DNA of 64,000 nt from Escherichia coli (GTDB taxonomy: Bacteria; Pseudomonadota; Gammaproteobacteria; Enterobacterales; Enterobacteriaceae). The stretch lies in the NCBI RefSeq assembly GCF_003991155.1, contig NZ_CP031295.1; one strand, 5' to 3'. Numbering within the stretch: the stretch's first letter is position 1; every line of letters begins with the position of its first letter. Made by a program: the position numbers. This document shows, piece by piece, positions 12,001 to 18,000 of this stretch.

Positions 12001-15000
12001 GCACCGTCCTGGCAAGCGGGCCGACAGACACCACTTTTACAGCCGAGAACCTGGAGCTGGCTTTTAGCGGCGTACTGCGCCATGTCACACTTAACGGCTC
12101 GGAAGAAAGCATTATTACTGACGATGAACGCCCTTTTGTGGCACATCGACCGTCAGCGGTGCAGAGGGAAGAAAGATGAACGTGCTACTGGAACCCTTCA
12201 GCTATGAATATATGCTCAATGCGATGTGGGTCTCGGCGATGGTCGGCGGTCTCTGCGCTTTCCTGTCATGCTATCTGATGCTAAAAGGCTGGTCGCTGAT
12301 TGGCGATGCGCTGTCGCACTCTATTGTCCCGGGTGTTGCGGGGGCATATATGCTGGGGCTTCCGTTTTCTCTGGGAGCCTTCTTTTCCGGCGGACTGGCA
12401 GCGGGCAGCATGCTGTTTCTTAACCAACTCACTCGCTTAAAAGAAGATGCCATCATCGGCCTGATCTTCTCGTCCTTTTTTGGCCTGGGGCTGTTTATGG
12501 TGTCATTGAACCCGACATCCGTGAACATTCAGACCATCGTCCTGGGCAATATTCTGGCAATCGATCCGGCGGATATCCTGCAACTCACTATCATTGGCAT
12601 TCTCTCGATCATCGTGCTTTTTTTCAAATGGAAAGATCTTATGGTGACCTTTTTCGACGAGAATCACGCCCGTGCTATTGGATTGCATCCGGGCAGATTA
12701 AAAATCCTCTTCTTCACCCTGCTGTCGGTTTCGACCGTTGCGGCGCTGCAAACGGTTGGTGCCTTTCTGGTGATCTGTCTGGTGGTGACTCCCGGTGCAA
12801 CAGCATGGTTGTTAACCGATCGTTTTCCCCGCCTGCTCATGATTGCTGTAACTATTGGCAGTGTGACCAGTTTCCTCGGCGCGTGGGTCAGTTACTTTCT
12901 GGACGGCGCGACAGGTGGAATCATCGTGGTGGCGCAGACACTGCTGTTTCTTTTAGCATTTGTCTTTGCGCCCACCCATGGGCTTTTGGCAAATCGTCGG
13001 CGTGCGCATAAAGCGCTGGAGGATCGCTCATGATGGCATTATTACTGGAGCCACTGCAGTTCACCTTTATGAGTCACGCACTGCTGATTTCACTGGTAGT
13101 TTCCATACCCTGTGCGCTGCTGTCGGTCTTTCTGGTCCTGAAAAGTTGGGCACTGATGGGTGACGCGATGAGTCATGCGGTTTTTCCTGGCATCGTGCTT
13201 GCCTGGATTCTGGGGTTACCTCTGGCTACAGGGGCATTCGTCGCCGGAGTATTCTGTGCGGTGGCGACGGGATACCTGAAAGACAACAGCCGAATCAAGC
13301 AAGATACAGTGATGGGGATTGTTTTTTCTGGCATGTTTGCCGCAGGTCTGATCTTGTATATTGCAGTCAAACCAGACGTACATCTTGATCATATTCTTTT
13401 CGGCGACATGCTCGGGATAACCATCGGCGATATAATCCAGACGGTGATTATTGCCGGACTGGTTACACTTGTTATTAGCGTAAAATGGCGGGATTTTTTG
13501 CTGTTCAGCTTTGATTATCAACAGGCGCAGGCAAGCGGTTTGCATACGAGATGGCTGCATTATGGGCTGCTGTGCATGGTCTCCCTGACCATTGTGGCGA
13601 CGCTGAAAGCGGTAGGTATCATTCTCTCTATTTCTCTTCTCATTGCGCCTGGTGCCATTGCGGTACTCCTGACACAACGCTTTCATATTGCGCTCCTGCT
13701 GGCGACTGGCATATCGATATTGGTCTCAATGACTGGTGTCTGGCTGTCCTTTTTTATCGACAGCGCGCCAGCTCCGACAATTGTTGTCTTATTCGCGGTC
13801 ATGTTCATCATGACGTTTACCGTTACCAGCATCAACGCACGCACAAAGGAAAATGCCGAACCACGGGATTTGTTATCATCCGATTAGCAGAACACTCGGC
13901 CAGCAACATCCGCTTATTGGCGATGCGCTTGAACGAATAATGCACAGACTTATGATTCTGATAAGTTTTGTTGCCAGAGAGTTGCTGCGGACTGGATAGC
14001 AAGTGATGTCGATTCTCAGGGGTAGCAAACAGCGCAGTAAAATGAGGGAAGTAGTGGCAAAACATAGAGAAAATTGGGGGGCGAGGGCCAGTGATGTAAA
14101 AAACCACGCTAAGAGTTTAATTAATTGTTTGTATTGAAGTTTAATGATCTTAACTCACCCTTAAGAATATCTTCCGGTAACGAAGACGTATAATGCCCCA
14201 GCATATTTATATGGCTATGTATCAGCAGCGATAATCTTGCCGGATGCTACTCCTCAGGAGTTTCTCCCGATTTGCGAAGATGTGACAACGCCTCCTGCAT
14301 GTAAAGTGTGTTTCACAGCACAACCGCATTGGTCACCAGCCCCAGAGCACCTAGTTGATCTTCCTGCCCTTAACGGTAGCTGAAGATGACTGGGCTGGAT
14401 GGAAAATCCTGCATGGTGCATTGGGAGAGCAGATAGAATTGGTTGGCGACGATCTGTTTGTGACCAACGTAAAGTATATTCAGCGCGGCATTGACGAAAA
14501 CCTTGCCAATTCAGCATTGATTAAACTCAACCAGATTGGTTCCCTGAGTGAAACCTTTGATGCGGTACAACTTTGCCATGACAACAACTGGGGCACCTTT
14601 ATCTCACACCGCAGTGGTGAGACAGTGGACAGCTTTATCGCCGATATGACAGTTGCAATGCGCGCAGGTCATCTCAAAACGGGAGCTCCATGCCGGGGTG
14701 AGCGTATTGAAAAATATAACCAGCTTATGAGAATTGAGGATGAACTGGGTTCATCGGCGCAATTTGCTGGAAAGTCTGCCTTTAAATGACATTATTGTGC
14801 CAATCCCCCAGGCTTACACGTCGGGGTTATTCTGGAGGAATGATGAAAGCTCACGTTTTTGTTATTTCTATGCTTACTGGCATTGTCGTCACCTATGCCG
14901 TGTTACTTCTTGGTTGCTTGTTCATCGATAAAACGCTCCCCACTGTAGATGTTGTCATTCTGTCACTTGTCGTGGGGGCTTCTGCTCAGCAATTGTCGAG

Positions 15001-18000
15001 GGTATTAATGTCAATAAATAGAACCTTCCCTTATCTTGCATGTAGTCAAAGGATATAAATTAACAATATCAGTCAAATGAGAACATATTCTGATATTGTT
15101 ACGATAAAAAATTATTTTATGAGGGGTACATGATTAAATCACTTTTTGCCGTCATTATCGGCGGTTCTGTTGGATGTACTCTGCGCTGGTTACTGTCCAC
15201 ACGCTTTAACAGTCTTTTTCCAAATCTACCTCCAGGTACACTGGTGGTGAACCTCCTTGCCGGGTTAATTATTGGTACTGCGTTGGCGTACTTTTTACGA
15301 CAACCACACCTTGATCCTTTTTGGAAATTAATGATAACAACGGGACTTTGTGGAGGTCTGAGTACTTTCTCTACATTTTCTGTTGAAGTATTCGCATTAC
15401 TCCAGGCGGGAAATTATATATGGGCTTTGACGTCTGTACTTGTTCACGTCATTGGCTCCCTCATCATGACAGCTTTAGGCTTTTTTATCATAACCATACT
15501 TTTCGCATGAGAATTCATTAACGTTACAGGTTTATCAACTAATGTGACGCTTAGGATAGAATTTCGCTCCATGGTATGCGTTTGCAGTCATTACAGTCTC
15601 CATGACGACTGTAATGACTGCAAACGCATTACCTGACATATCAGTATAAACAATGAATTAACCTCTTGGCGTATTTTTTACATCACTGGCCCTCACCCCC
15701 CAAAATTCTCTCTGAAAAATTGTTGCGGTTAACGTTGCCAATGTATCCACCCATTTCAGAAGACGATCTGGCATCCTGGTGGCATGCTGCGATGTGCTTC
15801 AGGTGAGTGCACTGGGCGGTCAGCACAGGCGGTTTCGACAGCGAAATTGCACAGGACGTTATGCCGGCTGTGAGTACAACATCATAGCCTTACTTGATTG
15901 TACGGTAATGCCAAATACATGCAGACACTATGGTAAATAATACAGCGGCAAATAATGCCGTCACAATCAGCGCGATTGAGACACCTGTTTTCGACGCCAG
16001 TGGCACCAACAATGCGCACAGCCCATAGCCAAGTGTGTGACTGGCCGCAAGCCAGCCCGCGCCTGCGCCGTCGGCCAGCTTATCATTCAGTAAAAGTTGA
16101 TAAGCGGGTGTTGCCAGAGCGGCCCCAAATGACAGCACTGCACAGCCCAGGTAAAACAACCATAGCTGTTCAGTGAGCATGATAGCCAGACCACTACTCA
16201 TCAACACCCCGGCACTCAGGAGCAGAGCCACTGGAGTCAGGCGCTGTGGACGGAGTACCACGAACTGCGCGATAAGCGCAGCTATTGCGGACAGCCCCAA
16301 CAACCACGCCACCTGTTGGCTAATAGTGGTGGTATCAGTATCGAACTGGCGAGTAAGGGCTGGCGAAAGTCCAAGCTGCATCATGCTCATTGCCGCAGCC
16401 AGTAACATTGCGCAAAGCAGATAAGGCAGGCAATCCCGCTTCAGGCTGACGCTCTTGCGCTCCGGTGTGGGCTGTGGTGGTGTGCCGGGCAACCGCAGAA
16501 GCATCACCACAGCCCACACCGGAGCTGCCATCAGCATCCACACTGGCGCCAGAGGGTGAATGACCAACATTGCCGCCGCGCACAGCGGCCCGAATAGCCT
16601 GCCGCAGCTCAGGCCGGAGCTGATGGTTGCCAGAGCGGCCATGCGATTCCCTTCTCCCGCTCTCTGCAATGCCCAGACCTGACAGGCTGGCACCATTGCT
16701 GACACGGTCAGACCGTAGACGATCCGGGCGATGATTAATATTCCCAACCCCACCGCTGTTGTTACGGCACCGGTAGCCATCAGCACGCTTCCCAGCCCAA
16801 GCAGGGTAAAGCTTACGCCATATCCTCCCAGAGCCCACAGCACCACAGTCTTACTGCCAGTAAGGGAAATTTGCTTTCCCCACCATGGGGAAGATGGCAG
16901 AAACAGCATTGAGCCCAGCATCAGCAGGGCAGCCCATACAGACAGACTCAGATTTGTCTGTATGACCAGAACAGGGAGTACAACCAGCAGACCGTTCTGT
17001 CCGATACCGAGAAGACCGGCACTGAACGCCAGTGGCCAGCAGGACAGGGTTTTTTGGGGCGTATCTTCGATCTTAGATGACATTGTAATGTTTCAACACC
17101 ATGTATTAATTGTGTTTATTTGTAAAATTAATTTTTCTGACAATAACATTTCTCATTGATAATGAGAATCATTATTGACATAATTGTTATTATTTTACTG
17201 TGTAGGAGCTGTTTGATTATGATCCTGCCCTCTGAAAAATCCGCCACAGATGTGGCTGCGCAGTGCTTCCTGAATGCCTTGATTCGTGAAACCAAAGACT
17301 GGCAACTGGCGGAATACCCGCCAGACGAATTGATTATCCCGCTGGACGAACAGAAGTCGCTCCATTTCAGAGTGGCTTATTTCTCCCCAACCCAGCATCA
17401 CCGCTTTGCATTTCCTGCTCATCTGGTCACGGCATCAGGCAGTTATCCTGTCGACTTTACCACTCTCTCCCGGCTTATTATTGATAAGCTCCGGCATCAA
17501 CTTTTTCTGCCAGTTCCCCTCTGCGAAACTTTCCACCAACGCGTGCTGGAAAGCTACGCCCATACGCAACAGACAATTGATGCCCGCCATGACTGGGCCA
17601 TCCTGCGTGAAAAAGCGTTGAATTTTGGCGAGGCTGAGCAGGCACTGCTGACAGGACACGCTTTCCACCCTGCACCTAAGTCTCATGAACCGTTTAACCG
17701 CCAGGAAGCTGAACGATACCTGCCTGACATGGCACCTCACTTCCCGCTGCGGTGGTTTTCGGTGGATAAAACGCAAATCGCTGGTGAAAGTCTGCATCTT
17801 AACCTTCAACAGCGGTTGACGCGATTTGCCGCAGAAAATGCGCCCCAGTTACTCAACGAATTAAGTGACAATCAATGGCTGTTCCCGCTGCACCCGTGGC
17901 AGGGAGAATATCTTTTGCAGCAAGTGTGGTGCCAGGCACTTTTTGCTAAAGGACTTATCAGAGACTTAGGCGAGGCCGGCACGTCGTGGCTGCCGACCAC

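Follow-up and report, generated by a model that had tools for sequence, protein, structure and literature searches.

Truncated enolase and crcB in the sitD-shiF spacer of ColV-type plasmids as probable leftovers of a Tn3-family fluoride-resistance transposon

The window analysed here, 64,000 nucleotides of Escherichia coli DNA (assembly GCF_003991155.1, contig NZ_CP031295.1), is part of a ColV-type IncF virulence plasmid that carries an enolase fragment, a small membrane open reading frame (ORF) and the fluoride channel gene crcB in the spacer between sitD and shiF. Positions 14076-15701 (1,626 bp) very probably constitute a non-autonomous, internally deleted transposon of the Tn3 family, the expression and history of which we infer below. 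A sequence-only reading of the same DNA had described these features as the relic of a horizontally acquired fluoride operon that lost its 5' part on insertion; all features that it described are present and chance explains none of them. Acquisition of the operon and loss of its 5' part are borne out by a longer form of the locus and by relatives on other replicons, while the proposed loss on insertion gives way to an internal deletion of 4,239 bp in a long form occupying the same site. Moreover, that reading did not name a transposon as the vehicle, and terminal inverted repeats together with a remnant of the transposase gene tnpA show a Tn3-family element. Parts of the locus are already annotated: RefSeq and the Prokaryotic Genome Annotation Pipeline (PGAP) label it as pseudogenes of a Tn3 transposase and of phosphopyruvate hydratase plus crcB, and the sole working gene, crcB, is well known. 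The synthesis of transposon vehicle, two-step deletion and loss of fluoride sensing was not found in the searched literature, where neither a fluoride operon carried by a Tn3 element nor the small protein was seen described, and is a new instance of known things.

The locus is widespread and nearly uniform: over 700 plasmids, most of them of E. coli, show 99.8-100% identity across roughly 2 kb around it. Its deletion junction, which defines the short form seen in the window, occurs in 948, or about 17%, of 5,426 complete E. coli genomes, and crcB of this locus in 810 of them; about 160 junction carriers are without crcB through further truncation or insertion sequence (IS) insertion. A long form was found at the identical sitD-shiF site and with identical ends in 23 of these 5,426 genomes, as in the E. 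coli plasmid pEC244_2 (NZ_CP019018.1, hereafter L008). There the order is a tnpA pseudogene, a pseudogene of the resolvase gene tnpR, a fluoride riboswitch, ppaC, usp, full-length eno, the small ORF and crcB, the protein of the latter having the same accession as that of the window (WP_001318207.1). The riboswitch scores 43.8 bits against Rfam, within the span of 43-52 bits (RF01734) covered by the long form and its relatives. Window positions 11000-14380 align with L008 3842-7222 and positions 14379-18000 with L008 11462-15083, so that the window equals L008 minus 4,239 bp in one clean gap with a 2-bp GC overlap. In base-level alignment this microhomology lies at 14379-14380 and joins antisense tnpA at about codon 904 to eno codon 291. 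Right of the junction the window is 99.9% identical to L008, left of it 98.9%, and only two substitutions separate long and short forms across 14379-15715.

Because tnpA and eno, both broken, are fused at a junction that lies within the element, the change ran from the long form to the short one. Judged by these alignments, the 5' part is lost by a later internal deletion and not upon insertion. That the operon instead arrived already truncated, shedding its riboswitch and the enolase N-terminus while inserting between sitD and shiF, agrees with the window itself, which is without any 5' part, but is very improbable, since the long form keeps riboswitch, ppaC, usp and full eno while occupying the identical site, with the same repeats and flanks and 99.9% identity right of the junction, and since the point where tnpA and eno meet is internal to the element, away from its edge. 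A third structural variant exists in many ColV-like plasmids, in which a breakpoint at window position 14510, in the enolase fragment, leads into a malate-dehydrogenase pseudogene (L021 5319-5674); crcB is lost in this variant.

Both ends of the element are terminal inverted repeats of about 38 bp and of the GGGG...TAAG type characteristic of the Tn3 family. An inverted-repeat scan across loci placed the left one, of 38 bp and with the sequence GGGGGGCGAGGGCCAGTGATGTAAAAAACCACGCTAAG, at 14076-14113 on the plus strand, and the right one, one base shorter at 37 bp, at 15665-15701 on the minus strand. Similarity between the two ends extends inward from the left repeat to about 14137 (BLAST pair 14063-14137 / 15641-15714), and a conserved subterminal sequence lies inside the right repeat at about 15637-15664. 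Homology to independent copies breaks off 0-2 bp from the outermost base of the right repeat, at 15701 in a draft genome contig (L004) and at 15703 in an Enterobacter hormaechei plasmid (L009), which marks a true element terminus. On the left, some 300 bp (14072-14380) are about 91% identical to annotated Tn3-family transposon ends in Enterobacter, Citrobacter and Klebsiella plasmids. Directly outside the repeats, the sequence reads AAAATT on either side (14070-14075 and 15702-15707), a candidate target-site duplication. The sequences outside the repeats (14063-14075 and 15702-15714) are themselves inverted-repeat-like, reading CATAGAGAAAATT and AAAATTCTCTCTG, and a reconstructed insertion target would equal the imperfect palindrome GAGAA-AA-TTCTC.

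Between these ends, the transposition machinery has largely gone. A decayed 3' remnant of tnpA, comprising about residues 904-992, occupies 14109-14378 on the minus strand, where PGAP calls a pseudogene that lacks its N-terminus and contains an internal stop. By tblastn, the minus strand of 14148-14378 corresponds to residues 904-980 of a 992-residue TnpA (L002) at 91% identity with three in-frame stops. The full transposase of about 990 residues, which in a relative scores 1122 bits on NF033527, is absent from the window, and with only about residues 904-980 and three stops left the locus is a remnant and not an active family member. Neither a resolvase gene nor a res site was found in the window; the long form has tnpR as a pseudogene, whereas L009 and L010 have it intact. 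No sign of mobilisation was seen either, because every full-length copy found has identical flanks.

Relatives on other replicons reveal what the element has lost. In the E. hormaechei plasmid L009, which is 86% identical in nucleotide sequence and shares the right end, riboswitch and operon are accompanied by an intact tnpR and the N-terminal part of tnpA; L004 has the operon with the right inverted repeat; and Rosenbergiella metrosideri (L010) has the left inverted repeat, a full-length tnpA match, tnpR, riboswitch and operon. Enolase sequence and crcB are contiguous in the long form as well as in the Enterobacter and Rosenbergiella relatives and hence come from one operon on one vehicle, which upholds their proposed common origin. 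A CrcB scan of the genomes of 100,044 species yielded a single close relative, that of R. metrosideri at 93% amino acid identity, where the operon adjoins Tn3-family tnpA and tnpR, and identified no native chromosomal source. In PLSDB no intact copy with working tnpA and fluoride operon was found; intact tnpA-tnpR backbones of 90-93% identity carry other cargo there. The mosaic character of the locus, with 14379-14600 nearly identical to L010 and crcB (within 14615-15510) closer to L009, suggests recombination among operon variants.

The cargo of a Tn3-family transposon on an E. coli plasmid (L014, 1-5125) is a SIR2-family gene with a DUF87 gene; this transposon has its right end of about 107 bp in common with the putative fluoride element, which points to one backbone with interchangeable cargo for both. 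L010 has a second fluoride riboswitch (50.2 bits, 10507-10576, minus strand) just downstream of crcB and pointing at its 3' end. Two divergent fluoride riboswitches were seen in a Klebsiella pneumoniae plasmid (L016, 1104-3675), one leading a CLC-type channel and a DUF190 gene, the other an operon of ppaC, usp, eno, small ORF, gpmA, crcB and a P-type ATPase gene.

From these comparisons, the ancestral element would have consisted of the left inverted repeat (IRL), tnpA reading leftward, res, tnpR reading rightward, riboswitch, ppaC, usp, eno, the small membrane gene, crcB and the right inverted repeat (IRR), with the fluoride operon in the place that bla occupies in Tn3. A first deletion would have taken away res together with the 5' ends of tnpA and tnpR and thereby produced the long form, surviving in a few plasmids. 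The second, of 4,239 bp at the GC microhomology, would then have fused the 3' remnant of tnpA to eno codon 291 and carried off two thirds of eno along with the riboswitch, ppaC and usp, leaving the form seen in the window. Persistence of the locus since then would be owed mainly to hitch-hiking between the sit and aerobactin virulence operons.

The one gene left intact is crcB (15130-15510, plus strand, 126 amino acids). Its product matches the PDB chains of Fluc-Ec2 (5A43, 6B24, 7KKR and others) across all 126 residues, the only protein-level difference being R25K relative to 7KKR, the one alignment displayed, and its score on NF010792, 175.8 bits, exceeds the cut-off of 125. Members of the Fluc family have about 120-130 residues and the motif GxxGGxTTFSTFxxE in transmembrane segment 3 (quoted in PMC3755343), which in the plasmid protein reads GLCGGLSTFSTFSVE. 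Fluc-Ec2, the source of which is listed as 'E. coli virulence plasmid', is a proven dimeric channel selective for F- (PMC3755343). The product of the plasmid gene thus is Fluc-Ec2, a crystallised and electrophysiologically characterised passive F- channel that lowers cytoplasmic fluoride, and the earlier assignment of crcB to a fluoride channel is sustained by conduction proven in vitro (PMC3755343). The genomic context of the Fluc-Ec2 gene was not discussed in the structural papers searched.

What remains of the fluoride operon beyond its exporter gene is little. A permissive Rfam scan of window positions 13000-17500 detected no fluoride riboswitch even at E <= 10, although the same model finds it in the long form at 43.8 bits, so the earlier failure to see such a structure upstream of crcB was justified; the only matches were spurious miRNA families on hairpins, one source of which is a G+C-rich hairpin in the shiF coding region (16459-16525). 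The extra enolase and pyrophosphatase copies of such operons are likewise gone, with eno cut to codons 291-426 and ppaC and usp deleted. The relic genes are co-oriented with sitABCD on the plus strand, where the stretch of sitB, sitC and sitD extends to 13887, and a sequence scan found no terminator-like site on this strand between sitD and crcB. An AT-rich hairpin of 12 bp followed by an A/T-rich tract (15061-15101, plus strand; RNA fold -14.5 kcal/mol, z = -2.6), both arms of which are nearly unchanged in L004, L009 and L010, is possibly a weak attenuator. In plasmid pS88, in vivo fold changes by quantitative reverse-transcription PCR were 776 for sitA, 140 for sitD, 18.7 for the enolase fragment (eno'), 9.7 for the small ORF and 6.1 for crcB, with the in vivo value coming from a single experiment and p < 0.05 reached only by eno' in urine (PMC3438092). 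The decay of induction along this series suggests attenuated, weak read-through from the sit promoter. In the proposed scenario, crcB would no longer be inducible by fluoride, and its transcription would be low and mostly due to read-through from the iron/manganese-regulated sitABCD promoter.

Selection could offer a different explanation, namely that plasmid crcB is kept since it has its own promoter and raises the fluoride tolerance of extraintestinal and avian pathogenic E. coli (ExPEC/APEC) beyond that conferred by chromosomal crcB. We consider this somewhat unlikely. An intact crcB in 810 of about 970 carrier genomes, the high activity of the Fluc-Ec2 channel, a promoter-like site at 15060-15089 and the detection of a crcB transcript in pS88 would all be in line with it. 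On the other hand, the copies are 99-100% identical and have therefore spread recently, which makes their conservation uninformative on selection; truncation or IS insertion has deprived about 17% of the junction carriers of crcB, and the remaining resistance genes were deleted along with the fluoride sensor.

Several observations weigh against a decayed transposon persisting by hitch-hiking and expressed by read-through from sit. A query with the reconstructed sitD-shiF junction found no unoccupied site among the 5,426 E. coli genomes, which leaves the insertion event and its target duplication putative, and the AAAATT flank repeat has 6 bp against the 5 bp usual in the Tn3 family. The roughly 160 junction carriers without crcB fit dispensability but are no gauge of its fitness effect in those genomes that keep the gene. 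The limited significance of the pS88 values has been mentioned above, and the weak promoter-like site at 15060-15089, which overlaps the hairpin, could drive crcB alone.

The enolase pseudogene (14379-14789, plus strand) comprises the C-terminal 136 codons (291-426) and a stop, and is labelled by PGAP as a phosphopyruvate hydratase pseudogene missing its N-terminus. It aligns with residues 289-425 of solved enolases (E = 1e-50) and with model positions 288-422 of 425 in TIGR01060, where its 197.9 bits fall below the cut-off of 300. About two thirds of a full-length enolase of some 430 residues, with N-terminal and barrel domains, are missing, including the N-terminal domain. The enolase identity assigned earlier to 14355-14789 is thereby secured, whereas the start moves inward: the first eight codons of the ORF that begins at TTG 14355 are antisense tnpA remnant, and enolase homology sets in only at 14379 (Ala291). 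The fragment is very probably a dead pseudogene. For the corresponding ORF 17 of pS88, a functional role in supplying phosphoenolpyruvate to the shikimate and siderophore pathways has been proposed, and its transcript was up 8-fold in urine (p = 0.04; PMC3438092). With residues 291-426 alone left, the N-terminal domain and the first 290 or so residues gone, the start codons of the ORF stemming from tnpA antisense and the induction accounted for by read-through from sit, such a function is hardly credible.

Between the enolase pseudogene and crcB, the small ORF previously noted is present, although not at the length of 90 amino acids that had been read: a stop interrupts the N-terminal extension in all three relatives compared (L004, L009, L010), and the real ORF has 71 amino acids, starts with MKAHVF and spans 14843-15058 on the plus strand. 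It is delimited by alignment, and Kyte-Doolittle hydropathy gives two hydrophobic segments, that is, a predicted two-helix membrane protein. The canonical length in relatives is 59 amino acids, and in the ColV lineage loss of 1 nt near 15012 gives the protein a different C-terminal tail. An origin as a gpmA remnant was rejected as no similarity was found. A codon-position test among close relatives gave no third-position bias (5, 11 and 4), and the resulting view of the ORF as non-coding DNA was overturned by a deep family alignment and conserved riboswitch contexts. A profile search of 1.84 billion representatives retrieved 23 relatives, among them full-length members of 59-65 amino acids with 27-53% identity and no internal alignment gaps; no Pfam or NCBIfam match was found for the family. 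Members were located at L018 5001-5192, L019 5001-5192, L020 3614-3802, L022 675-863, L024 5001-5180 and L016 at about 6466-6660. In L018, L019 and L020 the small ORF directly follows eno in riboswitch-ppaC-usp-eno operons, in L024 it comes after a usp-like gene behind a riboswitch, and in L022 it alone follows a riboswitch and terminator of its own. These contexts make it moderately probable that two-helix membrane proteins of about 60 residues, the small ORF product included, form an undescribed family that is genuinely within the fluoride-riboswitch regulon. If so, the family would be a new component of the fluoride response, and it is the part of this work most likely to open something new.

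Downstream of crcB, what had been taken for a perfect palindrome of 54 bp at 15576-15629 has perfectly complementary arms of 23 nt (15576-15598 and 15607-15629) separated by a spacer of 8 nt and is thus an inverted repeat of 23+8+23 nt. Its right arm and the approximately 70 bp up to the terminal repeat are part of a conserved transposon right end of about 107 bp, which also occurs on elements with other cargo (L014, L015), and do not belong to the crcB cargo. Complementarity of the left arm is only partial in L009, L004 and L014 and perfect only in the ColV lineage, where 11 bases in the centre of this arm complement the right arm exactly. Changes clustered in one arm fit a single template switch, and the perfect hairpin probably came from template-switch correction of a quasi-palindrome in the transposon right end. 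A function for the repeat, which might insulate in both directions or stabilise RNA 3' ends where crcB and shiF converge, or else bind a protein, appears unlikely. The RNA hairpin is very stable (-46.6 kcal/mol, z = -7.9), lies between convergent genes and is conserved in an imperfect version in related transposon ends, all of which would suit a function; yet no U-tract or T-run, which an intrinsic terminator would require after its G+C-rich stem, follows on either strand, the terminator scan did not call the stem, the perfect form is confined to the ColV lineage, and the one-arm clustering is what a single template switch would leave. The shiF-like gene beyond, of the major facilitator superfamily, occupies 15890-17083 on the minus strand, and iucA begins at 17156.

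The truncated enolase and crcB, two genes counted as 'core' in ExPEC/APEC virulence plasmids, can thus be reread as probable leftovers of a fluoride-resistance transposon, which corrects earlier published readings of the enolase as a shikimate feeder and of crcB as a camphor and supercoiling gene. This provides a genomic origin for Fluc-Ec2, the workhorse of fluoride-channel biophysics, and indicates that fluoride operons move among Enterobacterales plasmids as Tn3-family cargo. A second fluoride channel gene, which would no longer be fluoride-sensing, is found downstream of an iron-regulated operon in the 810 complete E. coli genomes with this crcB. The practical consequence is modest.

In Tn3 and Tn1000 (gamma-delta), tnpA and tnpR are divergent and cargo lies between tnpR and IRR. 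The element under study shares this layout in its repeats of 38 bp of the GGGG...TAAG type, in tnpA ending within IRL, in divergent tnpA and tnpR and in cargo between tnpR and IRR; it differs in the destruction of tnpA, res and tnpR, in a fluoride operon that replaces bla and in the 6-bp flank repeat. Tn3-derived inverted-repeat miniature elements (TIMEs) are non-autonomous, with both inverted repeats and without transposase. Likewise, the locus keeps both terminal repeats without a working transposase, and mobilisation in trans is conceivable; unlike TIMEs, it measures 1.6 kb, has cargo and arose by deletion. As for the cargo, the ColV lineage is about 72-76% identical in nucleotide sequence to the similarly ordered Klebsiella plasmid operons L007 and L016. 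The Enterobacter cloacae FRM operon consists of riboswitch, ppaC, uspA, eno, gpmA, crcB as well as orf5249 and was shown by experiment to be induced by fluoride and to confer high-level resistance (Liu et al. 2017, PMC5533749). The ancestor of the ColV element would resemble it in kinds and order of genes and in the riboswitch leader; however, gpmA lies between eno and crcB there and the small membrane ORF takes this position in the ColV lineage, and of the whole arrangement the window keeps only the 3' third of eno, the small ORF and crcB, with no riboswitch.

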